A stretch of DNA of 57,047 bases from a virus (lineage: Duplodnaviria > Heunggongvirae > Uroviricota > Caudoviricetes): IMG/VR virus record IMGVR_UViG_3300028887_000082; one strand, given 5' to 3'. Below, piece after piece: positions 43,117-57,047 of this stretch (position 1 is the first letter of the stretch; every line of letters starts with the position of its first letter). The position numbers and the translations under genes were made by a program. The notes beneath the pieces are model-generated. The model did not search any database. It was not told the origin of the DNA and saw only the letters and a program-made list of their open reading frames with translations.

Positions 43117-43120
43117 TAGT

Positions 43121-43305: not shown

Positions 43306-43317
43306 TAGTGTTGAAAG

Positions 43318-43432
43318 TTCAATACCAGTTAAGTATCAGTATCGAGGGTTGTAGGCCAATACTTAACTAGCACCAACTGACAGTGTGTGGAATATGTAGC
43401 AATGTGGCTATACTGATACTCTGGTTTTGAAT
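43318..43432 (+). ncRNA. structured leader with two mutually exclusive helices
   Basis: AGTATCAGTAT/ATACTGATACT (11 bp) versus GTTAAGTAT/ATACTTAAC (9 bp). Confidence 0.45.
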
Positions 43433-43446
43433 TAATTATTAGGTTA

Positions 43447-43519
43447 GGCTCCGTAGCTCAGTTGGTAGAGCACGGCACTTTTAATGCCGGGGTCACGGGT
43501 TCGAGCCCCGTCGGAGTCA
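43447..43519 (+). tRNA. trnK: tRNA-Lys(TTT)
   Basis: Full cloverleaf; CGGCA-CT TTT AA-TGCCG; CCA not encoded. Confidence 0.92.
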
Positions 43520-43532
43520 CAAAAAAGTTCTG

Positions 43533-43671
43533 GGTGGGACCGGATAACCTTGCAAGGGTTATTGATGATTATACTATATGTACTGATGGGTTAGTCCAGA
43601 CTTAAAATCCACAAAGGCAATTGTACATAGTCCTGAAGTGGTTGAGGAGAGGTGCTTGCAATACTCTCACC
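43533..43671 (+). ncRNA. candidate structured RNA with two TTGCAA-loop hairpins
   Basis: GGTGGGA/TCTCACC closure; TATGTAC/GTACATA; TTGCAA at 43550 and 43656. Confidence 0.4.
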
Positions 43672-43677
43672 AAAAGG

Positions 43678-43753
43678 AATATCATAGCTCAGTTGGTTAG
43701 AGCACCCACAGACTGTAATTGGGAGGTCAGAGGTTCGAGTCCCCTTGATGTTA
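43678..43753 (+). tRNA. atypical tRNA, Thr(TGT)-like with enlarged anticodon loop
   Basis: Normal acceptor, D and T arms; anticodon arm CCCA-CAGACTGTAAT-TGGG. Confidence 0.6.
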
Positions 43754-43759
43754 CAAATT

Positions 43760-43770
43760 AGTTCTTTGAA
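43760..43770 (+). promoter_or_regulatory. boxA-like antitermination element
   Basis: AGTTCTTTGAA; further copies at 46507, 47665, 49550, 52011. Confidence 0.6.
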
Positions 43771-43771
43771 A

Positions 43772-44106
43772 TATTTGTCTCAATGATGGTTATTTCTGCT
43801 TGTGTTTAGAGTTCCCGTCAGCAAACCTCAAAAGGATTAAATGTGGATTTCCACTATGTCCCGGTAATAACGCTGATAGCAGAATTAACAATCCCTATCT
43901 GGTGAAGACTGAAGATAAGGTGCTAAGCCCTGTAAAGATGAAAAATCACTATCTATGTCAATCCAGGACACTGTTTGTTTAAGATAGTGTATTGAAATAT
44001 AGAGGGTAGTCCAAACAGGTTAGGATGCGAAGTTTAAGTAACATTACTATGGACGTAGAACACTTCTCTATTCTTGCAAGATTTCAATGAGGGATTGAGA
44101 CAAATA
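43772..44106 (+). ncRNA. candidate ~335-nt structured ncRNA
   Basis: Perfect 13-bp end-to-end helix TATTTGTCTCAAT/ATTGAGACAAATA with nested stems. Confidence 0.6.
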
Positions 44107-44110
44107 ACAT

Positions 44111-44184
44111 TGGGATGTAGCTATAATGGTTAGAGCAACTGGCCGTTAACCAGAAGGTTGCAGGTTCGAGTCCTGTCATCCCAG
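44111..44184 (+). tRNA. trnN: tRNA-Asn(GTT), C33 variant
   Basis: CTGG-CC GTT AA-CCAG; G73. Confidence 0.88.
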
Positions 44185-44192
44185 CAAAAGAT

Positions 44193-44277
44193 ACCCCAAT
44201 GGTGGAATGGTAGGCACGTCAGATTTAAGATCTGATGACCCGTAAGGGTCGTGTGGGTTCGAGTCCCACTTGGGGTA
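44193..44277 (+). tRNA. trnL: tRNA-Leu(TAA)
   Basis: TCAGA-TT TAA GA-TCTGA, long variable arm. Confidence 0.9.
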
Positions 44278-44292
44278 CACACCACGAACACA

Positions 44293-44389
44293 ATGATGCA
44301 GCGTGGGTTCGGCATACTAGCTGCCGGGGTGTCTTTGACATCATAGAATTGGTGCGTCATCGGCCAGGTGACCCGAGTGGAAGACTGGC
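44293..44389 (+). ncRNA. candidate ~100-nt structured ncRNA, possible pseudoknot
   Basis: ATGATGCA/TGCGTCAT, CGGCA/TGCCG, GCCAG/CTGGC; GGGT/ACCC cross-pairing. Confidence 0.5.
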
Positions 44390-44394
44390 AAATA

Positions 44395-44468
44395 GGGCCT
44401 TTAGCTCAGTTGGTCAGAGCAACTGACTCATAATCAGGAGGTCCCAGGTTCAAGCCCTGGAAGGCCCA
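44395..44468 (+). tRNA. trnI: tRNA(CAT), probably Ile2 (lysidine type)
   Basis: CTGA-CT CAT AA-TCAG; body resembles bacterial Ile2 (GGGCCTTTAGCTCAG...GGTTCAAG). Confidence 0.8.
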
Positions 44469-44559
44469 CAAATATTAAAGAAAGAATTTATGACACAGAT
44501 GCTTAAACAGAAACAGGTATAGTCTGACCTCATTCAGTTATGAGGTCTCAAATGATTAT

Positions 44560-44631
44560 GGCCTTGTAGCTGAGTGGTAAAGCACCTGTCCTTTAAACAG
44601 GGGATCGTGGGTTCAATCCCCACCTGGGCCA
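44560..44631 (+). tRNA. trnK: tRNA-Lys(TTT), C33 variant
   Basis: CCTGT-CC TTT AA-ACAGG. Confidence 0.85.
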
Positions 44632-44641
44632 CAAAACATAT

Positions 44642-44713
44642 GCCTCCATAGTTCAACGGATAGAACGGAAGTTTCCTAAACTTTTGATATGGGTTCGATT
44701 CCCGTTGGAGGTA
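44642..44713 (+). tRNA. trnR: tRNA-Arg(CCT)
   Basis: GAAGT-TT CCT AA-ACTTT. Confidence 0.9.
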
Positions 44714-44719
44714 CAAAGA

Positions 44720-44903
44720 TAAATAGCACCCATACAAAGATCTATATGGGTAAAGACAACTGGACACGCCAAAGACTACGTGCCTTCTGGGATCGACACT
44801 CCGGAGTTATGTCACCCACCTGAGCGGCGGAACTGGTCTGGGTAACCAGGGTTTAATCTGAAGGGAAACCCCAGAGGAAGAGATGTCCGGATTGTGCTAT
44901 TTA
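44720..44903 (+). ncRNA. candidate ~185-nt structured ncRNA
   Basis: 10-bp closure TAAATAGCAC/GTGCTATTTA; TGGACA/TGTCCG; CTTCTGGG/CCCAGAGG. Confidence 0.55.
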
Positions 44904-44910
44904 ATAAAAC

Positions 44911-45083
44911 GTTTAGGAATAGAGGTAGTTTTCCAGCGGGAATTAAGGATCACTGCTCGACATTAAGTTGTGAGTAAGATTGCCACCGGGTAACCAAACC
45001 TGGGTCGCCAGTAAGAAAGGTGGGTATGGTCGTCCCACCGAGTATGAACGCGGGCATAAAGACAGAACACTATAACCCTAAAT
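44911..45083 (+). ncRNA. candidate ~170-nt structured ncRNA
   Basis: GTTTAGG/CCTAAAT closure; GGTGGG/CCCACC; shares GGGTAACCA with preceding element. Confidence 0.45.
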
Positions 45084-45096
45084 ATGAGACCAATAT

Positions 45097-45169
45097 GGTC
45101 TGGTAGCTCAATGGATAGAGCAACAGCCTTCTAAGCTGTGGGTTCTGGGTTCGAGTCCCAGCCGGATCA
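45097..45169 (+). tRNA. trnR: tRNA-Arg(TCT)
   Basis: ACAGC-CT TCT AA-GCTGT. Confidence 0.92.
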
Positions 45170-45333
45170 CTTAAGGGATGATAGTCCACCTCCCTTAACA
45201 TAGGATGATATGTTAGAAGAAATTACTGTGGACAACAAAACCAAAGCCAGACTGCAAATGGTGAAGGTTGGCGTTCTGAATATGAACAATTGGATTTTGC
45301 AGTGTTCAGTTGGGATTTGAAGGTTCGTAAAAT

Positions 45334-45402
45334 GCTTGTTGGTGTAGTGGTTAGCATTCCCCCACCCGGGGGCGACGCTCGGTTCGAATCCGGCACAGGA
45401 GA
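45334..45402 (+). pseudogene. degenerate tRNA
   Basis: D arm GGTGTAGTGGTTAGCAT and GGTTCGAATCC T-loop, but CCCCC-ACCC-GGGGG anticodon arm and weak acceptor. Confidence 0.5.
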
Positions 45403-45423
45403 CTAAGTTATAATAATTAAGGA

Positions 45424-45735
45424 ATGGAACAGAAACCAAGAATTAAGTGGAAGAACTTCAAGATCTGGATTAAGGACCAGTTGAAGAGGAAGACCTGGTT
45501 CAGGAATTTCTTCATTACAGGAAATGCCTGGGGTGGATTCAGTATCAACTCACACATCAACCAGCATACAGGTCAACCGAAGATAACCTACAACCATTTT
45601 GAATCCGCAAAGAAAGCGGCAGACAAGATGAGTCAGAAACATGGTACACATTTCAGTGTTTACAAGTGTCTCTATTGTGACGGTTATCACATAGGAAAGA
45701 ACAGGGAGAATAAGACGGATTATGACAAAAAATAA
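45424..45735 (+). CDS. hypothetical protein
   Basis: Basic; YKCLYCDGYHIG zinc-finger-like tail. Confidence 0.75.
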   Translation: MEQKPRIKWKNFKIWIKDQLKRKTWFRNFFITGNAWGGFSINSHINQHTGQPKITYNHFESAKKAADKMSQKHGTHFSVYKCLYCDGYHIGKNRENKTDYDKK

Positions 45736-45740
45736 AAATT

Positions 45741-46202
45741 ATGAGTAAGTTAGAGAACAAGATCCAGGAGGATATGGTTGAGGCAATGAAGAACAAGAAT
45801 GAGTTTGTACGTGATACACTCAGGATTGTCAAGAGTGAGATAGGTGTCTTCAAGACCAGTGAGAAGTTCATCAAGAGAAATACTGAAATCACAGATGATG
45901 ATATTCAGGGTATCCTTGAAGAGATGGTCAAGAGGAACAGAAAGAACATTGACACAGCGAAGGCCGCAAACCGTGATGACATAGTAAAGAAGAATGAGGA
46001 TGAGATTTCAGTCTTTGAGAGTTATCTCCCAAAGAAGATGACTGAATCAGAGATAGAGGAGGTTGTTGTGAAGACCATCCAGGACCTGGGTGCAACATCA
46101 ATGAAGGATATGGGAAAGGTAATGGGTTTCATCACCAAGACATATGCCGGAAAGGTGGATGGTTCAGTTGTTTCAAAAATTGTGAAGTCTAAACTTGGTT
46201 AA
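45741..46202 (+). CDS. GatB/YqeY domain protein
   Basis: IQEDMVEAMKNK...LPKKMTESEIE...MKDMGKVMG...GKVDGSVVS. Confidence 0.88.
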   Translation: MSKLENKIQEDMVEAMKNKNEFVRDTLRIVKSEIGVFKTSEKFIKRNTEITDDDIQGILEEMVKRNRKNIDTAKAANRDDIVKKNEDEISVFESYLPKKMTESEIEEVVVKTIQDLGATSMKDMGKVMGFITKTYAGKVDGSVVSKIVKSKLG

Positions 46203-46213
46203 TATAAAGAATT

Positions 46214-46444
46214 ATGAAAACTTGGATAATAGTATTGACAATTGCTTTCATCTTCTTGAAGCTTGTTGCAAGAGGGTTTGCAAACTACATCAGGAATGAC
46301 AAGGAAGAGAGAGTGAAGTATTACTTTACCAGTGGTGCAACCCCACTTGGTGTGATACACGGATTCATTTCTCTCTTTGGTACACTGGTAGGATTTGCTG
46401 ATATAATCCTGATCATCATAATGGTTGCGAACAGATTGTTATAA
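46214..46444 (+). CDS. small membrane protein
   Basis: Two hydrophobic segments. Confidence 0.65.
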   Translation: MKTWIIVLTIAFIFLKLVARGFANYIRNDKEERVKYYFTSGATPLGVIHGFISLFGTLVGFADIILIIIMVANRLL

Positions 46445-46459
46445 ATCATTACATAAATA

Positions 46460-46492
46460 TTTGGATGTTTCAGATATTTTTGTTATATTTGT
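46460..46492 (+). promoter_or_regulatory. Bacteroidota sigma70-type promoter
   Basis: TTTG (46460) - 21 nt - TATATTTG (46485), followed by boxA-like 46507-46518. Confidence 0.7.
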
Positions 46493-46551
46493 AACCAGAA
46501 AAGAGAAAGTTCTTTGAAATTTTTAAAATTTGTTCAACATAAATATAATAT

Positions 46552-47334
46552 ATGATTGTCGAACAAATGGATAAACCCAAGTATCATTATTTCTATAAAA
46601 TAACAAATAGACTCAATGGACATTATTATTATGGTGTTCATTCAACATATAATCTTGATGATGGATATATGGGGTCTGGAAAAAGATTACATATTGCTTA
46701 TAAGAAATATGGTATAGAATGTTTTGAAAAGGAAATTTTAAAATTTTTCAATACCAGAAAAGAATGTGAGGAATATGAAGAATCAGTTGTTAATGAAATA
46801 TTGATTGGTGATGACAATTGTTATAATTGTGTACCTGGTGGAGGAACTTTAAAAACTCCAGGAAAAGCATGCTTCATTGATGAAAATGGTAATATTATAC
46901 AAGTAACCACAGAAGATGCACATAAGAGAGGATTAAGAGGTAATGCAGTGGGTACAACATTAGTAATTGTTGATGGTGAATATGTTATGGCTGATGTTGA
47001 TAAACTTAATGATTATGATTCATTTAAGTATCCTATGAGTGGAAAAATAACAGTATATGACAAAAATAATAACCATTATGTTGTAAGTTGTGATGATAAA
47101 AGATATATTTCTGGAGAATTAAGACCATTCTGGTCAGGTAAAAAACTTTCAGAGGAAACAAAAACAAAAATTAAAACATCACTATCACTAATACATCATC
47201 AACAAGGTGAAAAAAATTCTCAATATGGAACTTGTTGGATTACTAAAAATAATGAAAACAAGAAAATTAAAAAAGAGAATTTAGAAACATATCTTAATGA
47301 TGGTTGGGTTAAAGGAAGATTTATAAAACACTAA
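46552..47334 (+). mobile_element. free-standing GIY-YIG (Seg-like) homing endonuclease
   Basis: YFYKITN...YYYGVH...GYMGSG; NUMOD3-like KKLSEETKTKI; AT-richer than neighbours. Confidence 0.8.
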
Positions 47335-47352
47335 ATGTGTTAATGATATATA

Positions 47353-47662
47353 GGTCTTGTTGATACTTTCAGGAAAAACTGTAGGACACGGGTTCGAGTC
47401 CCGCTACCTCCACAAATTTATATTTTTTATATGGGGGTATATTGGTTTTGACTGCTTTTAAGTATGGGAAGAGGAGAGGTCTATCGCCAATAACTGGCAA
47501 AAACAACAATTTCTCTGTAAACTTTGGCCCTGTTGCACAAACAGCTGCTCCAAAGGCTATGATGGCTGCCGCTTAATCGTGGTTTCCCTGATTAGTAAGT
47601 ACACTGGCCAGGCTGGTGTCACAGAAGGTTCTATCCATCTTGTCCAAAAAGATGGATCTTTT
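47353..47662 (+). ncRNA. ssrA: circularly permuted two-piece tmRNA
   Basis: T arm plus 3' acceptor TACCTCC-A (47405-47412) precedes 5' acceptor GGGGGTA (47433); G3:U70; ATAACT|GGC resume; tag 47496-47576 GKNNNFSVNFGPVAQTAAPKAMMAAA*. Confidence 0.88.
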
Positions 47663-47683
47663 GAAAGTTCTTTAAAATATTAT

Positions 47684-47787
47684 ATGGGTGGATTGTATGC
47701 AGTTCTTGATAAGTCTGTATCAGTACTTGCAGATACTGTCTTGAATTAAAGTAAAGAATAGGATCCTGATTACAATAAGTTCCCACC
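47684..47787 (+). ncRNA. candidate ~105-nt structured RNA
   Basis: GGGTGG/CCACCC closure; TCTGTA/TGCAGA hairpin. Confidence 0.35.
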
Positions 47788-47824
47788 CGCCCTTACAGTT
47801 ATGGTTAATCTGTGAAAACCAAAT

Positions 47825-48017
47825 GGGTCAATAGCTCAATGGTAGAGCAGCGGACTGTATAAGGAGTGGTTTACCGGAACAAACCAACCTGGTATGGTCG
47901 AGTGGTCAAAGACGTAGGTTTAGAAAACCGGAGTAAGTTAAAAACTTGCAGACGTTGGTTCAAATCCAACTATCAGGTCTAATCCGCAGGTTGTAGGTTC
48001 GAGCCCTACTTGGCCCG
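47825..48017 (+). tRNA. trnN: interrupted tRNA-Asn(GTT): exons 47825-47858 and 47980-48017
   Basis: Joined exons give a 72-nt cloverleaf with GCGGA-CT GT|T AA-TCCGC, short variable loop and G73. Confidence 0.8.
47888..47978 (+). tRNA. nested type-II tRNA-Ser(AGA)-like gene inside the tRNA-Asn anticodon
   Basis: CCTGGTA/TATCAGG acceptor, TGGTCGAGTGGTCAAAGAC D arm, TT AGA AA loop, long variable hairpin, GTTGG-TTCAAAT-CCAAC. Confidence 0.7.
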
Positions 48018-48021
48018 CAAA

Positions 48022-48109
48022 GTACATAGGAAGTCCTGGTCGTGGTGCACGCTTATGTTAGGTTCGGGTTTGATCAACCCACAGAGGTTCGAGTCCTCTC
48101 TATGTACCA
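48022..48109 (+). ncRNA. tRNA-like RNA with non-canonical D/anticodon region
   Basis: 8-bp acceptor GTACATAG/CTATGTAC, AGAGG-TTCGAGT-CCTCT, GGGTT/AACCC arm. Confidence 0.6.
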
Positions 48110-48126
48110 AATAATAAATATAATAT

Positions 48127-48217
48127 GGAGGAGTGGCAGAGTGGTTTATTGCAGAGGTCTTGAAAACCTCCGGGCGTGTTGAGCGCCCCGTCGGTTCGAA
48201 TCCGGCCTCCTCCGCCA
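48127..48217 (+). tRNA. trnS: tRNA-Ser(TGA)
   Basis: GAGGT-CT TGA AA-ACCTC, long variable arm, G73, CCA encoded. Confidence 0.93.
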
Positions 48218-48398
48218 GTATAACAAATTCCAAAAGTTTGTTATATTTATTAAGGTTTTGTTATGTGTTTGTTTTAAGTTAAAGGTTCTAACCGCAACAA
48301 TTACAAAAAAGATGCTGTTCACATTTTCCAAATGAACCTTGTTTTGTTTCAAACACACAACTTCAAACCAAATAAACATTTAAATTAATTAAAAAAGT

Positions 48399-49040
48399 AT
48401 GAAGAAATTTTTGGCGTTTCTTATGAGCCTTGTGCTCATTTTCGGTTTGAGTTCATGTAACTCTTGCACAAGAAACCAGACTACTCCTACTGAAGAGACC
48501 ACACCGGCAGTTGCTGAGTTGGTTGTTGAGAATGTAATCTCTACTGACCGTCAGGCAATGTACCTTGCACATGGTGGTGACTACAGATGGTATGAGACTG
48601 GTGTTCAACTCAAGGACTGGCTTGATGAAGAGAATGATGGTACTATCGATATGGTAGTTAATGTTTTCCAGGTAATTGAGGAGTATGATTCAACAAGTTT
48701 TGATACCTATGTTTACAAGTATCAGCATTTTTCAGATGGTACTGTAAATGAAGATGGTGTTCATGGTTTCTGGGTTGAGGATTATCCTCTTGAACAGGAA
48801 GTAATTAAGGTAACATTCAAGGAAGCTTACCAGAAGATCCAGGAAGTTAATCTCCCAAGACCTCATTCACGTCAGGTTGTATTGAGAAAGCCTATCGGTC
48901 CTAAGGATTGCAATCCACAGTGGATATTTGGTAATCTCCATGAGCAGATTTGGGTTGATGCAGTTACAGGTGAAGTTACTAACAGTAACCCTGCATTTGA
49001 TGGTCTGAATCTCGGTACTCCACTTGGTGAGTGGCCCTAA
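48399..49040 (+). CDS. putative lipoprotein
   Basis: Signal MKKFLAFLMSLVLIFGLSSC. Confidence 0.8.
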   Translation: MKKFLAFLMSLVLIFGLSSCNSCTRNQTTPTEETTPAVAELVVENVISTDRQAMYLAHGGDYRWYETGVQLKDWLDEENDGTIDMVVNVFQVIEEYDSTSFDTYVYKYQHFSDGTVNEDGVHGFWVEDYPLEQEVIKVTFKEAYQKIQEVNLPRPHSRQVVLRKPIGPKDCNPQWIFGNLHEQIWVDAVTGEVTNSNPAFDGLNLGTPLGEWP

Positions 49041-49052
49041 TAGAAACAATAT

Positions 49053-49115
49053 AGGTTGAATGGTACAACCTGAAGTTAAATATCCACAGGGAAAGGGTTA
49101 GCCCTGGAAGTTAAA
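49053..49115 (+). repeat. two tandem hairpin-GAAGTTAAA modules
   Basis: AGGTTG/CAACCT+GAAGTTAAA and CAGGG/CCCTG+GAAGTTAAA. Confidence 0.45.
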
Positions 49116-49127
49116 GTCACCCAATAC

Positions 49128-49252
49128 TATGATGTGACAAGGAATAGGTATACTTGCGCCACGAGATAATATCAGATGGAAGAAGAGGAAGGGTATTCTT
49201 CATAAAAGTTGGACTAATTTAGTCAATGTGGGTTCGAGTCCCACTATCATAG
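49128..49252 (+). ncRNA. tRNA-shell RNA with expanded anticodon region (125 nt)
   Basis: TATGATG/TATCATA-G acceptor, CAAG/CTTG D stem, variable hairpin, GTGGG-TTCGAGT-CCCAC. Confidence 0.6.
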
Positions 49253-49259
49253 CAAATAT

Positions 49260-49333
49260 CGTGGGGTGCTAGCAGTGGTCAGCTAACTGGGCTCATAACC
49301 CAGAGGTCAGGGGTTCGAATCCCTTCCCCGCTA
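49260..49333 (+). tRNA. trnfM: initiator tRNA-fMet(CAT)
   Basis: C1:U72 mismatch, CTGGG-CT CAT AA-CCCAG (three G-C pairs). Confidence 0.88.
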
Positions 49334-49341
49334 CTAAACTT

Positions 49342-49479
49342 GCCAGTATAGGACAGTATATTGGACATCTGTAACCTCATGGGAGGTCGCAAGAGAGAAT
49401 GAAGGTAACATCTTCAACGTACCGGGTTAGTTCAAAGTAGAATACTCTTGTTATGTAAGTTCGATTCTTACTATTGGCA
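49342..49479 (+). ncRNA. tRNA-shell RNA with multi-hairpin insert (138 nt)
   Basis: GCCAGTA/TATTGGC-A acceptor, GTAAG-TTCGATT-CTTAC T arm, CAAGAG/CTCTTG inner stem. Confidence 0.6.
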
Positions 49480-49508
49480 CAAAAAAAAATAAAAAAGTTT
49501 CAAAAATA

Positions 49509-49540
49509 TTTGGTAGTTTCAAATTTTTTTGTTATCTTTG
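49509..49540 (+). promoter_or_regulatory. Bacteroidota sigma70-type promoter plus boxA-like element
   Basis: TTTG (49509) - 20 nt - TATCTTTG (49533); AAGTTCTTTGA 49550-49560. Confidence 0.8.
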
Positions 49541-49588
49541 TAGTGTTGAAAGTTCTTTGATAGTTTTAAATAAAACAAGGGTGGGTTT

Positions 49589-50654
49589 CTCATCCTTCCC
49601 AAGAAGCCTTCGGGTTGAGGGAGAAAGATAACCAGTGAATACATAAGCTGGGAAAGTCAGTAAGATATTGCATAGTATCCCTGGCGGAGGGTTCAAATCC
49701 TCCCTGTAAGAAAACCAAGATGGTCAGCATATCCTGGAATGGCAGTACACTGTGAAAGGGGTATGCGGAGGCTCTTACCAAGTCTCCTTGAGTGGTAACA
49801 CTGACAAGAACCATTTTGCTTCCGGACAAAAAGATTACCGGTCTGATTGTCTGAATGACCAAAGTTTATTGATATCCAAGAGACTACACCAAGTCTTCCT
49901 AACAGGTGGTGCTGAGATTCCAGAAATGGTTGGATATTAGAATTAGTAGAATGAGTAACACAGAGGTGTGTGAAAGTAGAAAGGTGATGTATCTAAACCT
50001 CTCAAAAGGAGGCATGATAACAAGGGTAACCTCATCTTTCAATCGGTAAATGCTCAATGATTCAAATTGGATGTTGACCAAAGACAGAATAATTAGATTA
50101 TTAAGCAAGCAAAAGTGTTACCCACACTGTAGGACAATACAGTTATGCTTCTGTAAGATGAAGCCTTATGGATCCCGCAAAGTGAAGTAAGAGTATCGCC
50201 AGTATGGACAATGCAAGTGGAGGCATCCACTCAACTCGGCAGAGGTCTTTGGCTTGAAAGCAGCTATGTAATACAGTGTAGTGACTATGGTAGTCTTGGT
50301 GGAAACACCATAAATCCACCTGTATCCGCTTCACCAATAGCAATGTTGGTGTGTGTAAATCTCAGGCGACTGGGACTTGTCCTGAAAAGGAAGAGAGTAG
50401 AGGCGGCGATTGGGGTCAACACTCAGCCCAAATCAATGAATTATTCAGAGTCGGTAACCAGTCCGGTATGGAAGAGCGAGACTTCCCTGGATAACAAAGT
50501 GATATTATAGAGGTACAAATTCTCCTGAATATATAGAACCACTCAGGAGGTTAATTCGAGGCCAGGGATATTACTGAAACAAATTCCCTTTTGGTTCACA
50601 GGGAATGGGAAGAGTGAGTTTGTAATCTGCGAGGTCGGGTTAGTTTTATCTCTT
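49589..50654 (+). ncRNA. giant (~1.05 kb) structured ncRNA candidate, GOLLD/ROOL-like
   Basis: No credible ORF; ends pair (49589-49601 with 50606-50618, 12 of 13); UUCG and GAAA tetraloop hairpins; internal T-loop; own promoter; in tRNA array. Confidence 0.65.
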
Positions 50655-50659
50655 CAAAT

Positions 50660-50733
50660 GGTGCGTTGGTGAAGTTGGTTATCATGCCACCCTGTCACGG
50701 TGGAGTTCACGGGTTCGAGTCCCGTACGCACCG
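50660..50733 (+). tRNA. trnD: tRNA-Asp(GTC)
   Basis: CCACC-CT GTC AC-GGTGG, G73. Confidence 0.93.
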
Positions 50734-50900
50734 CACATAAATATTATGTAAAGAACCATACCGCAATTTTAAACAAATTTCATTTTGATTGAAGAAACCA
50801 TTGGTTCTTGTTTCGTTTCTTTGTTTAGAAAAACAAAGTGGCAGAGACTGGTGGAAACACCCCTCTTGTGAGTGGTAATCTCACATACAAAAACTTGCCG

Positions 50901-50980
50901 GCTATACCCTGGAGGTAAAGGTGTCACAGGCCTATGCATGGGCTGTTTGCAGTACTGGTTCGAATCCAGTCTGGGTAGCA
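50901..50980 (+). pseudogene. degenerate tRNA-like element
   Basis: ACTGG-TTCGAAT-CCAGT T arm, bulged acceptor, extended central hairpin with ATGCAT; preceded by small hairpin cluster 50839-50899. Confidence 0.45.
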
Positions 50981-51003
50981 AATAAAAATGAAAATTGAAT
51001 TTA

Positions 51004-51011
51004 CATAAATA
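51004..51011 (+). promoter_or_regulatory. CATAAATA late-promoter motif upstream of leader 2
   Basis: Same context as leader 1. Confidence 0.55.
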
Positions 51012-51031
51012 ACTTATAAAGATTAAAAATT

Positions 51032-51148
51032 ATGATGACATTGCATACACATATTATGTTTATTGCGGGCAAGCCAGGTTGTTATCGTTTTTGGGAACAG
51101 AAGCAACTCGGACCTAAAGGTGTGTGGGTATGTCACCAGGATAAATAA
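51032..51148 (+). CDS. attenuator leader peptide 2 (38 aa)
   Basis: MMTLHTHIMFIAGKPGCYRFWEQKQLGPKGVWVCHQDK*; GVWVC codons form the antiterminator strand. Confidence 0.75.
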   Translation: MMTLHTHIMFIAGKPGCYRFWEQKQLGPKGVWVCHQDK

Positions 51149-51248
51149 GGATTAAACCAGGATAGGAAAGAAGGTACAGGAAATCCAACAAATATCAATA
51201 GAGACATCTCACACAAATCCAAAAAAAGATTTATGTGAGATTTTTTTT
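51122..51248 (+). terminator. attenuator 2: antiterminator 51122-51134/51203-51214 versus terminator 51206-51248
   Basis: GTGTGGGTATGTC pairs with GACATCTCACAC; ATCTCACACAAATC/GATTTATGTGAGAT plus T-tract. Confidence 0.78.
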
Positions 51249-51256
51249 ATTAACAC

Positions 51257-51331
51257 TGGGTAGTACGGTAATTGGTTCACCGGCTGCATTTGGGATGCAG
51301 ACATATGCGAGTTCGAGTCTCGTCTACCCAA
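51257..51331 (+). tRNA. trnP: tRNA-Pro(TGG)
   Basis: CTGCA-TT TGG GA-TGCAG. Confidence 0.88.
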
Positions 51332-51356
51332 CAAATATACAAAACAAAATAAGATT

Positions 51357-51602
51357 ATGGAGACACTCAAACAGATTGTGAAGGGAAGTGCAAAGTTGGA
51401 ATGCATGAGGAGTGGTGGTGTCGCAGAATACATCATCACATCAGAGACAGGAAAAAGATATGTATTGGACATAGACCTGTCAGACAAGGTGGACTGTGGA
51501 GAGAGTGCTTCATTTATGCCATACTATGAGAGAGCAATAATCCTGATGCGATGGATTCGCAGAGCAATGGAGAAGGGTGAATTGATAGAGTTAAATTCAT
51601 AA
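51357..51602 (+). CDS. hypothetical protein
   Basis: Clean ORF between RNA genes. Confidence 0.7.
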   Translation: METLKQIVKGSAKLECMRSGGVAEYIITSETGKRYVLDIDLSDKVDCGESASFMPYYERAIILMRWIRRAMEKGELIELNS

Positions 51603-51761
51603 ACACATCCGAGATGATCATAGGATGTGGGTTGGGAAGATGAGGATATGTCCGAAAAATTGCATAAAGTAGGATGTATTTAGGTAGCGAGCCCCTCCCT
51701 GGTAGCCAAACAGGTAGTTTAAAGTGCTTAAGAACAGACCAATCATTGAATTATTAGATAT

Positions 51762-51836
51762 GCCGGGTTCTACTAATTGGAATAGGTACCCTGATTTTCA
51801 ATCAGTGCAATATGGGTTCGAGTCCCATACCCGGTA
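51762..51836 (+). tRNA. trnE: tRNA-Glu(TTC)
   Basis: CTGA-TT TTC AA-TCAG; atypical D arm. Confidence 0.8.
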
Positions 51837-51841
51837 CAAAT

Positions 51842-51924
51842 GCGGATGTGGTGTAATGGTAGCCACACTTGGTTCAGAGCTAAGCGGCCGAAAGGCCATA
51901 TGGGTTCGAGTCCCTTCATCCGCA
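51842..51924 (+). tRNA. trnL: tRNA-Leu(CAG)
   Basis: CTTGG-TT CAG AG-CTAAG, long variable arm. Confidence 0.88.
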
Positions 51925-51929
51925 CACAT

Positions 51930-52003
51930 TGGGGGATCATCTAATAGAGTAAGGATACCACTCTGATACAGTGGAAATCCGGGTTCAAATCCCGGCCTCC
52001 CAA
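51930..52003 (+). tRNA. trnI: tRNA(GAT), nominally Ile
   Basis: CCACT-CT GAT AC-AGTGG; body is Gln/Glu-like. Confidence 0.75.
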
Positions 52004-52037
52004 CAAAAGAAAGTTCTTTGACATATTGTACACATTT

Positions 52038-52113
52038 GGGTCTGTGGCAGAGATGGTCTATGCGCTGGACTGAAAATCCAGAGAAGGAGGTTCGAGTCCT
52101 CCCGGACCCACCA
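52038..52113 (+). tRNA. trnF: tRNA-Phe(GAA)
   Basis: CTGGA-CT GAA AA-TCCAG, CCA encoded. Confidence 0.92.
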
Positions 52114-52124
52114 AGATTTGGGAA

Positions 52125-52316
52125 AAGGTTCTTGCATTGATGAAAGTAAATGACACCAGACACCTGATCAGTGAGGAAGTGTTGTTGAAATCGTCTAAAG
52201 TTGAGATGGGGAAAGTGTCATCAGTACTAGTCAAATGATGGGATGGAACTCAAGGAGACATATACTCTGCCTGGCGTGGGAGTCAGGAGGTTCATCAGCA
52301 AGTAAAGTGGAATCTT
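52125..52316 (+). ncRNA. candidate ~190-nt structured ncRNA
   Basis: AAGGTTC/GAATCTT, CTTGC/GCAAG, TGATGAA/TTCATCA, ATGACAC/GTGTCAT. Confidence 0.5.
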
Positions 52317-52321
52317 GACCT

Positions 52322-52405
52322 GTGGGAGTGGCGTAACTGGTAGCCGCGTCGGTCTAAGAAGCCGATCCCAGAAATGGGGTGAGAGTTCGAGTCTCTCTTT
52401 CCACA
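52322..52405 (+). tRNA. trnL: tRNA-Leu(AAG)
   Basis: TCGGT-CT AAG AA-GCCGA, long variable arm; A34. Confidence 0.85.
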
Positions 52406-52412
52406 CAATATT

Positions 52413-52493
52413 GGTCCCGGCATCATAGTAGATGTCATGGAAGCTGCCTGATTCAGCAGGACTGAACAGTGGGGTTCGATACCCTGGGGACCA
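52413..52493 (+). ncRNA. atypical tRNA-like RNA
   Basis: GGTCCC/GGGACC acceptor, 6-bp GGCATC/GATGTC stem, GGGG-TTCGATA-CCCT; no clean anticodon loop. Confidence 0.45.
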
Positions 52494-52499
52494 TCAAAT

Positions 52500-52622
52500 G
52501 TATATGTGAAGCAGATAGGATGTGCTACTACAAGAATTAGTAATCATTTGGATATTGCATACATATGTTCAGTAGAGATGAAAAGGATGTGGACTATGTG
52601 AGTTCGAATCTCATCATATACA
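52500..52622 (+). ncRNA. tRNA-shell RNA with insert (123 nt)
   Basis: GTATATG/CATATAC-A acceptor, GTGAG-TTCGAAT-CTCAT T arm. Confidence 0.6.
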
Positions 52623-52627
52623 TAAAT

Positions 52628-52702
52628 GCTCCCGTAGCTGAGTTGGTTCAAAGCACCTGTCTCTTAAACAGGGGATCCTGGGTTCGAGTCCCAGTGGGAG
52701 TA
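52628..52702 (+). tRNA. trnK: tRNA-Lys(CTT)
   Basis: CCTGT-CT CTT AA-ACAGG. Confidence 0.92.
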
Positions 52703-52712
52703 CAAAACAACT

Positions 52713-52864
52713 GGGGCACAGAGGAGATAAATCGGCTGGAAGCCAGCATTCTATGAAGTCATGAATTCATAAAGTGTACTCTGTGTGAGGGTTTTTACCA
52801 GAGATTGCATCATGCAATTGATGAATGGGAGTTTCCCTTTTAAGTTCGAATCCACAGTGCTCCA
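52713..52864 (+). ncRNA. tRNA-shell-like RNA with G3:U70 acceptor (152 nt)
   Basis: GGGGCAC/GTGCTCC-A, GTTCGAATCC loop without a paired T stem, several inner hairpins. Confidence 0.45.
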
Positions 52865-52869
52865 CAAAT

Positions 52870-53001
52870 GCCGGCTTATCACAGTATATAGGTGACTGTA
52901 GCCGCCCCGTACAGGCGGGTCTGGCCAACCGAAAGTGTACAGCTCGAGACAATGTATATGAGTAGAAGTCAGATATGGATGGTTCGATTCCTCCGATGGC
53001 A
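52870..53001 (+). ncRNA. tRNA-shell-like RNA with internal CC GTA CA hairpin (132 nt)
   Basis: TCAC/GTGA D-like stem, CCGCC-CCGTACA-GGCGG, GGTTCGATTCC T loop; weak acceptor. Confidence 0.45.
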
Positions 53002-53231
53002 CAAAGTTTGTTATATTTTAATAAAGGGTTCTTTATGACAGTTTGAACCTTAGATGTTAATAACTGTTAGTAGTCCTTTGCATCTTTATCCTACTATATC
53101 TTATGAAGATGTTTTAAGCCCAAAGTACACGGGAACGAAGATGGGATCTGCCTCTTAACAATGCATACTGAATCCTCCAAAACGTAGGTTGGCACAGTTA
53201 GACCTCTGGGGTTATTCTAAAAGGTCATTAT

Positions 53232-53304
53232 GGACCATGTAGTGTAACGGCGAGCATATCACATCTGCACTGTGATGGAGGGGTTCGAATCCCACATGTG
53301 TCCA
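53232..53304 (+). tRNA. atypical tRNA(TGC)
   Basis: TCACA-TC TGC AC-TGTGA (C33); bulged acceptor, no G3:U70. Confidence 0.55.
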
Positions 53305-53307
53305 CAA

Positions 53308-53457
53308 ATGAATATTTGAGGTTCCAGAAGGCTTCCGTAATGTGGCATAGTCGGAGGAGACACTGGAGATGGATAAACATGGAAATTCGGGCTACCGGGT
53401 GAGGCAGTGTTAGACGAGGAGGCTTGCTGGAATAAGCAGTCCGGGTAGAATATTCAT
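53308..53457 (+). ncRNA. candidate ~150-nt structured ncRNA
   Basis: 9-bp closure ATGAATATT/AATATTCAT; CTTCCG/CGGAGG; GACACTG/CAGTGTT. Confidence 0.5.
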
Positions 53458-53465
53458 CACAAAAC

Positions 53466-53565
53466 CACAGAGTGTCCAGAGTGTCGAAGCATTGGTTGGT
53501 ATGATGCTTTAAAAGTTTAAACTCTACTCCGAAAGTGGGCGACATATTCGAGACTATACTCTGTG
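53466..53565 (+). ncRNA. candidate ~100-nt structured ncRNA
   Basis: CACAGAGTGT/ATACTCTGTG closure; GTGTCG/CGACAT; AAGCAT/ATGCTT. Confidence 0.5.
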
Positions 53566-53579
53566 TGACAAAACTTTTC

Positions 53580-53655
53580 TATGGTATCTTCTAGTGGTCC
53601 AGGAAGTCCGAGGCTAACAGCGGTAGGGACAGAGGTTCGAATCCTCTTACCATAG
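53580..53655 (+). pseudogene. Gln/Glu-like tRNA with degenerate anticodon arm containing CTA
   Basis: TATGGTA/TACCATA-G acceptor, AGAGG-TTCGAAT-CCTCT; CCG-AGGCTAACAG-CGG anticodon arm. Confidence 0.55.
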
Positions 53656-53677
53656 CAAATTAAATAATTCATATAAT

Positions 53678-54385
53678 ATGAAATTAGGAAATTTAAAGTA
53701 TCATTATTTTTATAAGATAACCAACAATATAAATGGTCATTTTTATTATGGTGTTCATAACACAAATAATTTAGATGATGGTTATATGGGTAGTGGTTTA
53801 AAATTACAAGAAGCATATAAAAAATATGGTATTGAAAACTTCACTAAAGAAATATTAAAGTTCTTTGACACATCTGAAGATGCATTTAAATATGAAAGTG
53901 AGATTGTTACAATTGATTTAATAAAGTCAAAGAAATGTTATAATATTCAACTTGGTGGTAAATCCATTAACACTTCTGGTTTAATTGTTGTTATTGATAA
54001 AAATAATATAAAAACATTAATACCAAAAGATGATGACAAAATAATAAAAGGTAATGTGAAAATTTATTCTCCTTTAAAAAATAAATTGGTTGTAAAATAT
54101 AAAAATGATAATGATTATTTTTTAATTAATAGTGATGAATATGATTCTAACATTTATGAAACAAGTTGGACAAATAGACATCACACACAAGAATCAAAAA
54201 GTAAAATAAGAAAGACTTTAACACCTCAAAATTCTAATAATTCACACATATGGATTAATAAAAATGGGATAGTTAAATATTTAGATAAAAGAAAATTAGA
54301 TGAATATTTAAATGATGGATGGACATTGGGAAGAAGTGGATATAAACCAAGAAAGGGATGTAGAGGTAAGAAAATAGAAATATAA
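53678..54385 (+). mobile_element. free-standing GIY-YIG (Seg-like) homing endonuclease
   Basis: YFYKITNNINGHFYYGVH...GYMGSG; NRHHTQESKSKI; paralog of 46552 gene; very AT-rich. Confidence 0.8.
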
Positions 54386-54388
54386 TTT

Positions 54389-54475
54389 GGGAAGGTTGAG
54401 CAAATGGTTGAGCTCATCGGTCTGTAAAACCGACACTATGAAACACTGTGGGTTCGAGTCCCACCCTTCCCACCA
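54389..54475 (+). tRNA. trnY: tRNA-Tyr(GTA)
   Basis: TCGGT-CT GTA AA-ACCGA, long variable region, ACCA encoded. Confidence 0.9.
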
Positions 54476-54478
54476 AAT

Positions 54479-54549
54479 GCAGGATTAGTTTAATGGTAGA
54501 ATGTCAGCCCTCCAAGCTGAATGTGGGAGTTCGATTCTCCTATCCTGCT
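54479..54549 (+). tRNA. trnG: tRNA-Gly(TCC), C33 variant
   Basis: TCAGC-CC TCC AA-GCTGA, U73. Confidence 0.88.
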
Positions 54550-54555
54550 CTAAAT

Positions 54556-54630
54556 ACCGATGTAGCTCAGTTGGTCCAGAGCAGTGGACTCATATTCCAC
54601 AGGTCATTGGTTCGATTCCAATCATCGGTA
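54556..54630 (+). tRNA. trnM: tRNA-Met(CAT), elongator
   Basis: GTGGA-CT CAT AT-TCCAC; paired 1:72. Confidence 0.85.
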
Positions 54631-54645
54631 CAATAAATATTATAT

Positions 54646-54732
54646 AGGTCGGTGGCCGAGTGGTCGAAGGCAGCGGTCTCCAAAACCGCCAAGATGGTAA
54701 CATCTTCGAGGGTTCGAATCCTTCCCGGCCTG
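54646..54732 (+). tRNA. trnW: tRNA(CCA), nominally Trp, with type-II long variable arm
   Basis: GCGGT-CT CCA AA-ACCGC; AAGATG-GTAA-CATCTT variable hairpin; G73. Confidence 0.82.
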
Positions 54733-54742
54733 CTTGAGGAAT

Positions 54743-54814
54743 TGGACTATTGTGTAATGGTTAGCACATCAGATTTTGGATCTGACAGTCTGGGTTCGAA
54801 TCCCGGTAGTCCAG
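54743..54814 (+). tRNA. trnQ: tRNA-Gln(TTG)
   Basis: TCAGA-TT TTG GA-TCTGA, U1:A72, G73. Confidence 0.92.
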
Positions 54815-54914
54815 CAAAGTAAGAGTGTGGAAATAACTTGTAACTCAAGTAGAGAGTTTCCAGTAAATGGGTGGTGAGAAGAGTAATGAACTTACAATTT
54901 AGCCTTACTGAAAT

Positions 54915-54985
54915 TGGGATATAGTATAAGGGTAGTACGTTTGACTCTGGATCAAAAGGTGTGGGTTCGAATCCTGCTATCCCAG
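54915..54985 (+). tRNA. trnQ: tRNA-Gln(CTG)
   Basis: TTTGA-CT CTG GA-TCAAA. Confidence 0.9.
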
Positions 54986-54991
54986 CAAAAT

Positions 54992-55062
54992 GTCGGGGTG
55001 GCCGAGGGGCTAGGCAGCGGTCTGCAAAACCGCCTACGCAGGTTCGAATCCTGTCTCCGACT
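54992..55062 (+). tRNA. trnC: tRNA-Cys(GCA)
   Basis: GCGGT-CT GCA AA-ACCGC, U73. Confidence 0.92.
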
Positions 55063-55134
55063 CTAAACTCTGGAGCATACCGCCAGTACGGAAGTGGAAA
55101 AGAGGTACTGCTCTGTTTCCTACCAGAGTTAAAT

Positions 55135-55206
55135 GTCCCTGTGGTGTAATGGACAGCATACCAGACTACGGATCTGTTGGAGAGGGTTCGAGTCCTTCCA
55201 GGGATA
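55135..55206 (+). tRNA. trnR: tRNA-Arg(ACG)
   Basis: CAGA-CT ACG GA-TCTG. Confidence 0.9.
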
Positions 55207-55240
55207 CTAAAATTTTGTTATATTTAATGTATAACATCTT

Positions 55241-55312
55241 GCCGGGGTAGCTCAGTGGTAGAGTACATCTTTGGTAAGGATGAGGTCAAGAGTTCAAATC
55301 TCTTCTTCGGCT
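55241..55312 (+). tRNA. trnT: tRNA-Thr(GGT)
   Basis: CATCT-TT GGT AA-GGATG. Confidence 0.92.
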
Positions 55313-55317
55313 CAAAT

Positions 55318-55389
55318 GCAGTGTTCGTATAATGGTTATTATATAGCCTTGCCAAGGCTGAGATGGGAGTTCGATTCTCCTACACTGCT
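55318..55389 (+). tRNA. trnG: tRNA-Gly(GCC)
   Basis: TAGCC-TT GCC AA-GGCTG, U73. Confidence 0.88.
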
Positions 55390-55390
55390 C

Positions 55391-55577
55391 AAAGTATACA
55401 TAAAACGTTAATCCCGAGAATGATAGGTTACCACAAGGCAGTAGGTGTAAAAGAATAATTACTGTTTAACAAGTCTGCAACAGGGATCCCGGTAGTAATA
55501 CTGAGTGTTCAGCGAAATCTGAAATAGAGTGATAACTAAAGGTGAAAGTCCTTACAAACGTCCTATCTGTATACTTT
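55391..55577 (+). ncRNA. candidate ~187-nt structured ncRNA
   Basis: 10-bp closure AAAGTATACA/TGTATACTTT; GATAGG/CCTATC; CGGTA-GTAA-TACTG; AAGG-TGAAAGT-CCTT. Confidence 0.55.
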
Positions 55578-55582
55578 TATAT

Positions 55583-55659
55583 GGTGATGGTGGCCGAGTG
55601 GTATAGGCGCATGCCTGTGGAGCATGTTTACGTGGGTTCGATCCCCACCCTTCACCCCA
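55583..55659 (+). tRNA. trnH: tRNA-His(GTG)
   Basis: G-1:C73, CATGC-CT GTG GA-GCATG, CCA encoded. Confidence 0.92.
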
Positions 55660-55672
55660 AATTACAAAAGTT

Positions 55673-55996
55673 ATGGACAAAGATTTTAAAAAGAAGTTCC
55701 TGACAGACACTGATGAGACAGGAAGGTTTATTGTAAAGTCATTGAAGACAGGTAAGACCTACTTTGTTGAACCGGTGAACCAAGGTGTAAGAACAAACTG
55801 GGGAGACCTGGATCCAGTCACAAGAAAGATGACCGGAAGTTATGGAGAGAAATACAAGGGAAGTGTAACTCCTGATGAGTCTCTCATAACAGAGGAAAAT
55901 GGATTTGATAAGGTATATACATTAAGTCCTGGTGAATCTCCTCTTTCTTACATTGATATGATTGATGATGAGTATTTTAAAAAGATGAATAAATGA
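55673..55996 (+). CDS. hypothetical protein
   Basis: Clean ORF directly after the array. Confidence 0.75.
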   Translation: MDKDFKKKFLTDTDETGRFIVKSLKTGKTYFVEPVNQGVRTNWGDLDPVTRKMTGSYGEKYKGSVTPDESLITEENGFDKVYTLSPGESPLSYIDMIDDEYFKKMNK

Positions 55997-56118
55997 AACC
56001 GAGAATTTACAGAAGACACAGGGATGACACTAATCTCAGGACTAATATGAACATCATATTGGCAATTGGTGGAACTATAATTTTATTGGGTGTATTTTAT
56101 TTGATGTTCATAATATGA
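55993..56118 (+). CDS. small membrane peptide (41 aa, absent from ORF track)
   Basis: ATGA overlaps on both sides; C-terminal hydrophobic helix. Confidence 0.55.
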
Positions 56119-57047
56119 GTAAAAGGATATTGGTGACCGGTGGTGCTGGATTCATAGGTTCAAACCTTTGTAAGAAACTTGTGAATGAAGGTAATGATGT
56201 CATATGTCTGGACAACTTCTATACAGGAAGAAAGGACAATATATATGAACTGATAGGTCAGAAGAATTTTGAACTTGTTAGACATGATGTATGTCAGCCT
56301 TACCTGGCGGAAGTTGATGAGATATACAACCTTGCATGTCCCGCTTCTCCGATACATTACCAGAATGACCCCATCCAGACAACAAAGACATCTGTCCTGG
56401 GTGCATATCATATGCTGGGATTGGCAAGGAGGACAAAGGCAAAAATACTCCAGGCATCTACAAGTGAGGTCTATGGTGACCCGACTGTCCATCCACAGAC
56501 AGAAGATTACTGGGGAAATGTGAACTGTCACGGTTTCAGGTCCTGTTATGATGAAGGAAAAAGATGTGCCGAATCATTGTTCTTTGACTACAACCGTATG
56601 CATGGGATAAGGATAAAGGTGATAAGGATATTCAACACCTATGGTCCCAATATGGCAGTCAATGATGGAAGGGTGATTTCAAACTTCATCAACCAGGCAC
56701 TCAATGATGAGGATATCACGATATATGGTGACGGAAGTCAGACCAGGTCTTTCCAGTACATTGATGACCTGATAAATGGTATGACAAAGATGATGAATAC
56801 TGATGATTCATTCACAGGTCCGGTCAATATAGGAAACCCTCAGGAATATACAGTACTGGAACTGGCAAACAAGGTGATAGACCTGACAGGTTCAAAGAGC
56901 AAGATAGTATTCTGTCCTCTGCCTTTTGATGATCCAAAGAAGAGGAAACCGGATATAACACTGGCAAAGAAGGAATTAGACTGGTCACCAAAGGTTGATG
57001 TTGATGATGGGTTGATTAAGACAATAGAATATTTCAAGTCATTGAGA
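56115..57047 (+). CDS. UDP-glucuronate decarboxylase-like NAD-dependent epimerase/dehydratase, 3'-truncated (absent from ORF track)
   Basis: [45 protein letters not shown]; runs off the window. Confidence 0.9.

Follow-up and report, generated by a model that had tools for sequence, protein, structure and literature searches.

A leader that lists the codons of the tRNA array behind it: a probable multivalent attenuator in an uncultured gut phage

Among the enterobacterial leader peptides, trpL, hisL, pheL and leuL each respond to a single amino acid, while those of ilvGMEDA (Ile/Leu/Val) and thr (Thr/Ile) are multivalent. Why large phages carry dozens of transfer RNAs (tRNAs) is a matter of debate, and codon-usage matching, compensation for the decay of host tRNAs and escape from defences that target tRNAs have all been put forward. 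We know of no leader open reading frame (ORF) or attenuator described for the tRNA cluster of phage T4, and our search of the literature, which left most subscription journals outside its reach, found no published account of such attenuation for tRNA genes. Here we analyse leader 2, an element immediately ahead of a tRNA array (array 2) in a stretch of 57,047 nucleotides, referred to below as the window, that corresponds to bases 24250–81296 of the virus record IMGVR_UViG_3300028887_000082. With a probability of roughly 0.8, we propose that leader 2 is a multivalent, ribosome-mediated leader-peptide transcription attenuator that senses slow decoding. We favour this reading because the layout is conserved in 13 sequence versions, because the ORF appears to be under purifying selection, and because the match between the codons of the leader and the tRNAs of the array is significant and reciprocal with that of a second leader. 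The parts of the locus are as follows.

51000–51021, + strand: promoter-like bipartite motif (TTTACATAAATA, 2 nucleotides, TTATAAAG), with a putative role as promoter
51032–51148, + strand: leader ORF 2, 38 codons plus TAA, starting MMTL
51032–51118, + strand: sensor part of leader ORF 2, codons 1–29, ahead of region 2
51033–51050, + strand: region 1, which contains the start codons and forms the anti-antiterminator helix with region 2
51119–51136, + strand: region 2, codons 30–35, whose partner is region 1 or region 3
51149–51202, + strand: spacer, purine-rich, with a sequence that differs among relatives
51203–51219, + strand: region 3, which can join region 2 in the antiterminator and also supplies the 5′ arm of the terminator
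51206–51248, + strand: intrinsic terminator, made up of a hairpin (51206–51241) and a run of eight T (51241–51248)
51257–55659, + strand: the putatively gated tRNA array within the window, from Pro-TGG to His-GTG; ARAGORN finds 19 tRNAs with 19 distinct anticodons

The CATAAATA motif, the MMTL start, the terminator and the gap of 8 nucleotides between its T run and the start of tRNA-Pro at 51257, all of which had been described in a first-pass annotation made from the letters of the window, are present. The ‘GV-x-C end’ given there for the peptide is correct in so far as GVWVC occurs; four residues follow it, and most relatives have GVCM. CATAAATA lies at 51004–51011 within a longer recurring motif (TTTACATAAATA, 2–3 nucleotides, TTATAAAG), the core of which has 15 copies in the window compared to 4.5 expected, a count reached in none of 100 shuffles. 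Throughout the genome the extended motif stands 8–35 nucleotides upstream of start codons, and the context upstream of leader ORF 2 is A-rich. From 51012 to about 58015 (about 6.8 kilobases, kb) we found neither the CATAAATA motif nor a host-type cassette of the form TTTG..TAnnTTTG, which agrees with the annotated lack of a promoter between leader 2 and tRNA-Pro; hence, tRNA-Pro and those after it, at least as far as Glu-CTC, would be made only from RNA that extends past the leader 2 terminator. In the 26-kb tRNA region, strong terminators on the + strand are confined to leader 2, its paralogue leader 1 and one site after tRNA-Ala (genome position 86347).

A search with the orthologous peptide of 40 amino acids against 5.8 billion proteins returned 14 homologues (expectation values, E, of 6e-16 to 1e-8), and one degenerate DNA pattern led to 13 metagenome contigs, to which ENA contigs added more; the homologues, 16 further peptides in total, come from rumen and gut metagenomes and share the layout. 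We aligned 13 distinct DNA versions of leader 2. All 13 keep the extended TTTACATAAATA motif, an ORF of 36–41 codons, near-invariant regions 2 and 3, the terminator and the U tract, and in 12 of the 13 tRNA-Pro begins 5–15 nucleotides past the U tract. The spacer is unconserved, and 63–76 nucleotides separate the end of region 2 from region 3. Within codons 14–27 (AGKPGCYRFWEQLG) the third position varies in 11 of 14 codons, with a single non-synonymous change, which points to translation under purifying selection; judged by this substitution pattern, leader ORF 2 behaves as the translated leader of an attenuator should. Region 2, unlike codons 14–27, is near-invariant and devoid of synonymous variation, pointing to an additional constraint at the RNA level.

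Three mutually exclusive pairings of similar strength are retained in every variant. The 1:2 duplex has −17.2 kcal/mol in leader 2 (−12.7 to −19.3 across variants). The 2:3 duplex, between 51119–51136 and 51203–51219, has −18.6 kcal/mol (−14.2 to −16.3 in relatives), in line with the competition between antiterminator and terminator noted in the first pass. The 3:4 hairpin has −12.3 to −15.8 kcal/mol and is followed by 6–9 U in all 13 variants. As a control, region 2 was paired with the spacer, where the best window gave −7.0 kcal/mol in leader 2 (−4 to −7.7 overall). All seven inner pairs of the 1:2 helix are canonical throughout the 13 sequences, with five region 1 positions alternating one-sidedly between GC and GU, and canonical cells number 141 of 143 for 2:3 and 151 of 156 for the terminator. 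Most pairs are invariant and are thus uninformative either way, and a compensatory double change is seen in the 2:3 helix of relative L006 (ATGCC/GGCAT in place of ATGTC/GACAT) and a compensatory change in the 1:2 helix of leader 1 relative to its orthologue in L001. The minimum-energy fold of leader 2 includes the 1:2 helix; masking the first 75 nucleotides, as stalled or queued ribosomes would do, flips it from terminator to antiterminator, and masking region 2 restores the terminator. Leader 2 thus combines a terminator ahead of the genes, a 2:3 antiterminator and a 1:2 helix inside the ORF, as an attenuator would. An Rfam 15 scan of 42500–57047 at E ≤ 1 placed neither a T-box riboswitch, with its specifier loop, T-box sequence and stem I, nor any other family on 51000–51256.

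What distinguishes leader 2 is the choice of its codons. Its counterpart for comparison is the following element.

43096–43267, + strand: leader 1, paralogous to leader 2, with the motif, an ORF of 24 codons (43121–43195) and a GAAA-loop terminator, ahead of array 1

Against nulls drawn from the phage's own codon usage and from open-frame shuffles of each leader's nucleotides, 34–35 of the 38 codons of leader 2 are read by the tRNAs of its own unit (shuffle mean 24–26, P ≤ 0.0003; other frames 17–26), and 15–16 of the 24 codons of leader 1 are read by array 1 (shuffle mean 9.2, P 0.005–0.0013; other frames 3–7). The Fisher test on a leader-by-array codon table that had been proposed with the first-pass annotation proves reciprocal, with exclusive codons distributed 13 and 4 in one row and 4 and 23 in the other (P = 7.6e-5); the orthologous pair of leaders in L001 gives P = 0.0011 and is not independent of the pair in the window. 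The synonymous switches between the leaders are all seen, namely CGT versus AGG/AGA, ATT versus ATA and AAG versus AAA, together with both Gln codons, and leader 2 has no Asn or Ser codon. Among the aligned relatives the AAG, CGT and GGA codons are invariant, and transversions at fourfold sites are confined to Pro and Ala codons, where one tRNA serves the box; Gly, Leu and Arg codons have none.

With respect to amino acids, leader 2 holds all 17 types served by its unit and one other (P = 3e-4), a match that 30,124 windows from real proteins did not produce once. The set used in the sensor is exactly that of the 16 types served by the tRNAs at 51257–55659, for which P = 2.5e-6, with the sensor boundaries having been chosen after the data were seen. 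The coverage first reported, 16 of 18 anticodons, becomes 16 by strict and 17 by relaxed wobble of the 19 that ARAGORN counts, and the same two, Leu-CAG and Thr-GGT, are left uncovered. Such plain counts look more impressive than is warranted, since some 16 amino-acid types, and codons for about 12 of the 19 anticodons, are already present in a random ORF of 38 codons. Array 2 continues past the window with at least 12 further tRNAs, among them Val-TAC, Leu-CAA and two genes for Thr-TGT, of which one bears an intron, and this continuation improves the codon match. Regulatory codons are enriched in a modified form, as a list that matches the array, with no tandem run in leader 2.

A separate body of evidence comes from G001, a complete phage genome of 357 kb with terminal repeats, 65 tRNAs and arrays sorted by amino acid. 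It belongs to an unrelated lineage and was reached via a 47%-identical homologue of a gene of 81 amino acids. Four of its arrays are preceded by non-homologous leaders that match their array at the level of isoacceptors.

G001 alpha: tRNAs Pro-CGG/GGG/TGG, His and Gln-CTG/TTG; leader HIQPQHQPPQ (CCC, CCA, CCG, CAA, CAG)
G001 beta: tRNAs Asp, Glu, Val (three), Leu (three), Ala and Trp; leader with 21 of 30 residues from this set
G001 A: tRNAs Lys and Tyr; leader YYYTKKSYKK
G001 B: tRNAs Thr, Cys, Asn, Ile, Ser (three), Phe and Gly; leader with codons for every isoacceptor

Leaders A and B were read first, and the content of alpha and beta was predicted before their sequences were inspected; the prediction was borne out. 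In alpha, 9 of 22 codons belong to the array behind it (P = 4e-5; anticodons covered 6/6), and in beta 19 of 30 (P = 8e-5; 12/13), where the three Val isoacceptors are matched by GTA/GTC/GTG and the three Leu isoacceptors by CTC/CTA/CTG. The figures are 8 of 30 for leader A (P = 0.03; 3/3), whose eight Lys and Tyr codons fall inside one window of 12 codons (P = 2.8e-4), and 20 of 41 for leader B (P = 0.03; 10/10). The final codons of all four can base-pair with the 5′ arm of a strong terminator located 5–44 nucleotides before the first tRNA, with 2:3 duplexes of −13.8 to −20.1 kcal/mol, and masking the regulatory codons of the alpha leader yields the antiterminator. Two further G001 arrays, gamma and delta, stand directly behind protein genes and have no leader. 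ARAGORN also reports in G001 (L033:8008–8082) an amber-reading tRNA with the anticodon CTA, which may bear on stop-codon recoding in this lineage.

From the anatomy, conservation, coding selection, alternative pairings and codon match described above, we infer ribosome stalling, conditional read-through with its kinetics and a physiological trigger, as follows. A transcript started at the promoter-like motif or further upstream would carry the ORF of 38 codons. If the ORF is untranslated or quickly translated, region 2 would be paired with region 1 or lie under the terminating ribosome, and with region 2 unavailable the 3:4 hairpin and U tract would halt RNA polymerase 8 nucleotides before tRNA-Pro. 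A ribosome lingering somewhere in codons of about 2–27 would instead occupy region 1 and leave region 2 free to pair with the emerging region 3, so that no terminator forms and the array is transcribed. Nearly every tRNA species of the array has one to three codons in the sensor, which suggests an any-of-N gate: the whole array would be switched on whenever one of the codons it serves is decoded slowly. The supply of tRNAs would thereby be driven by demand, and the tRNAs of the phage itself would exert negative feedback.

As to the trigger, it is possible, though we hold it only tentatively, that the leaders detect the destruction or depletion of host tRNAs during infection, for instance through anticodon-nuclease defences of the host or through host shut-off by the phage. 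Ribosomes would then stall at the codons of the lost tRNAs in the matching leader and replacement tRNAs would be switched on, as would the transfer-messenger RNA (tmRNA) in the case of array 1.

Several observations weigh against the attenuator reading or restrict it. With only 60 nucleotides masked, the minimum-energy fold of leader 2 is still the terminator. The gap of 63–76 nucleotides between regions 2 and 3 exceeds that of textbook attenuators and makes the timing uncertain; a ribosome stalled late in the sensor would leave region 1 uncovered, so that queued or initiating ribosomes would be needed; and the model presupposes an RNA polymerase at the CATAAATA-type motif that obeys intrinsic terminators. 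As regards the codon list, AAA (twice) and GAT have no cognate tRNA in the unit, and 16 of the 30 codons of G001 leader A are also read by array B. Among close relatives the leader 2 peptide hardly changes while the set of tRNAs downstream does. The array of L024 includes Ser-TGA and Asp behind an unchanged leader, and L006 is without Lys-CTT and has retained the AAG codon. L014 has only Pro and Ala before a new host-type promoter and then tRNAs like those of array 1, and it is a partial counter-example only, because that promoter follows Pro and Ala. Two candidate leaders, in L002 and L003, in which the gene of 81 amino acids is preceded by a short ORF, a conserved stretch and a terminator, give a mixed picture: in L002 the anticodons covered reach P 0.013–0.13 and the codons read are unenriched, and in L003 the reverse holds. 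The expectation that leader codons should track array content is hence borne out by the four G001 leaders and imperfectly at fine scale among close relatives, which are a weak test of it, as leader and array are inherited together. Finally, array 1 is not under leader 1 alone, given three host-type promoter cassettes inside it.

The rival that survives best, and that we nevertheless regard as unlikely, is a generic attenuator that couples translation to transcription, with the codon match arising from coincidence or shared codon bias. Such an architecture requires just a translated ORF, it would accommodate a leader that stays constant while the arrays of close relatives vary, and the high coverage reached by a random ORF of this length lends it some credit. 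It has difficulty with a match that is frame-specific, exceeds composition-matched shuffles for both leaders, is reciprocal between them and recurs in four unrelated G001 leaders, such as HIQPQHQPPQ before an array for Pro, His and Gln.

It is less probable still that the peptide sequence itself acts, either as an arrest peptide responsive to a ligand or factor or as a small protein in trans, with the codons being incidental. The near-invariant order of the core AGKPGCYRFWEQLG in all homologues would fit this, as would a faint likeness of residues 7–24 (51050–51103) to the N-terminal part of DUF5606, a Bacteroidota family in Pfam. The likeness (E 0.012–0.016; seen for 8 of 16 family members) is below threshold, its best score of 15.8 bits over 18 residues comparing with a gathering cut-off of 25 bits, so that leader 2 is not a member; it may have arisen by chance or may reflect where the ORF came from. 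Otherwise Pfam, PHROGs and PDB returned no match above family cut-off or of clear meaning, the weak ones being two in PHROGs (E 0.26 and 0.36) and one in PDB (E 0.54). Substitutions argue against a role for residue order: three relatives have a Cys codon and the neighbouring Tyr codon in reversed order, and in L020 codons 25 and 28 have exchanged CAA and CAG, changes that preserve composition and not order. Residues present in a single copy are invariant while second copies vary, as a checklist predicts. Leader 1 and the G001 leaders, moreover, share the layout without sequence likeness.

Very improbable, lastly, is a stand-alone small gene or RNA with a promoter of its own and a constitutive, slightly leaky terminator, the tRNAs being supplied by fixed read-through or upstream transcripts: array 1 does carry promoters of its own, and in two rumen metatranscriptome studies Logan contigs span 50991–51189 and 50994–51162 and none bridges the terminator to tRNA-Pro (a weak argument that we count neither way, since RNA ends are invisible in contigs and carried-over DNA may contribute), but this view leaves the codon match unexplained, allows no reason for the terminator 5′ arm and region 2 to stay complementary, with a compensatory change, or for region 1 to sequester the start codon, and finds no space for a promoter in the 5–15 nucleotides that follow the U tract.

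The virus record that holds the window comprises 153.6 kb with 38% GC and an estimated completeness of 64%, for which the label of jumbo phage used in the first pass is unproven. Its 42 tRNA genes all lie on the + strand from 67.7 to 90.9 kb, as does a permuted tmRNA. A gene at 21317–22741 (+ strand) encodes a CCA-adding enzyme with PolyA_pol head, RNA-binding and HD domains, which fits with phage tRNA genes that lack an encoded CCA. The closest named phages are the Lak phages of Prevotella (DNA ligase 39% identical), and the DNA is present in bovine, goat and sheep gut metagenomes. An INPHARED DNA search with 50600–52200 gave matches confined to tRNAs, a search for related loci with the gene of 255 amino acids upstream of leader 1 gave none, and IMG/VR pattern scans led to a single relative contig only. 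Host-type promoters of the Bacteroidota kind (TTTG, 17–23 nucleotides, TAnnTTTG) are present, and four near-identical cassettes of this type point to a member of the Bacteroidota as the host.

43274–43305: promoter cassette of about 50 nucleotides, Bacteroidota type (TTTGG.AGTTTCA..TTTTTGTTATCTTTG then GTAGTGTTGAAAGT), right after the leader 1 terminator
46460–46491: near-identical cassette within array 1
49509–49540: near-identical cassette within array 1
58015, beyond the window: near-identical cassette

These four cassettes split the tRNA region into units. The notion of two leaders that each gate their own tRNAs is upheld in the reciprocal codon match and has to be relaxed for array 1, which has host-type promoters of its own.

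The arrays contain further elements, all on the + strand. A permuted, two-piece tmRNA lies inside array 1 at 47321–47667 (Rfam RF04321, 56 bits), so that a ribosome-rescue RNA is located together with tRNAs behind a putative stalling sensor. A GOLLD-like RNA, also inside array 1 and downstream of the 49509 cassette, occupies 49979–50429 and matches Rfam RF02032 over the full length of the model with 77 bits and E 7e-19, which is below the gathering score of 150 bits. Directly after tRNA-Asp follows a conserved non-coding stretch (50736–50985), which starts with CATAAATA and GTAAAGAACC, ends near GGTAATCTCACATAAATA, is common to L001, L010, L015 and L021 and matches no Rfam family; in the window it is followed by a degenerate tRNA-Ala-like fold at 50905–50979, detected by ARAGORN only at a lowered threshold. 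Two tRNA-like genes, at 43678–43753 and 53580–53655, score 46 and 36 bits with Rfam and are missed by standard ARAGORN; the former has an enlarged anticodon loop and at a lowered threshold is called Tyr-GTA with an insert of 4 nucleotides. Two paralogous ORFs inside the arrays (46552–47334 and 53678–54385) have N-termini that by eye resemble GIY-YIG homing endonucleases. In related phages, tRNA matches of 150–175 nucleotides (L001:17636–17790, L002:14687–14861, L003:14760–14920 and L001:6391–6563) suggest tRNA genes that bear inserts or introns, and the intron-bearing Thr-TGT gene of the genome studied here (L022:4073–4227) is of the same kind.

If a leader spells out the codons of the array behind it, the implication is that the phage gauges the speed of decoding codon by codon and supplies tRNAs on demand. 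If this is true, hypotheses on the purpose of phage tRNAs become directly testable, and classical attenuation extends to tRNA genes, to phages of the Bacteroidota type and to an any-of-N logic of up to 17 amino acids. Should the leaders sense the loss of host tRNAs, they would constitute a counter-defence circuit that acts on demand and needs nothing but RNA structure and the choice of codons. The pattern also offers an annotation rule for small translated ORFs and the boundaries of transcription units in uncultured phage genomes, and could be of use in synthetic biology as a source of compact, codon-specific sensors of translation stress.

Compared to known systems, array 2 resembles the tRNA cluster of phage T4 in that phage tRNA genes are clustered, those of T4 together with small stable RNAs, co-transcribed and processed. 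With T-box riboswitches (RF00230) leader 2 would share a terminator/antiterminator switch, a response to tRNA status and translation-related target genes; in the T-box, however, uncharged tRNA is bound directly by the specifier loop and no ORF is involved, whereas leader 2 has one. The pheST (pheM) attenuator of E. coli is similar in that a component of the translation apparatus is controlled by the supply of charged tRNA, but it responds to a single amino acid and its target is a synthetase, while the targets of leader 2 would be tRNA genes. The closest likeness in layout is to the enterobacterial amino-acid leaders, which have a short translated ORF, mutually exclusive 1:2, 2:3 and 3:4 helices and a terminator before the regulated genes, and in which, as proposed here, the speed of the ribosome on chosen codons sets read-through; the G001 leaders alpha and A even display classical runs of regulatory codons. 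Leader 2 departs from that model in that it would regulate tRNA genes and not biosynthetic enzymes, in having a long spacer between regions 2 and 3 and in being carried by a phage of the Bacteroidota type. In place of runs for one to three amino acids, it lists 16–17 types, mostly once or twice each, in codons that follow the isoacceptors of the array behind it.

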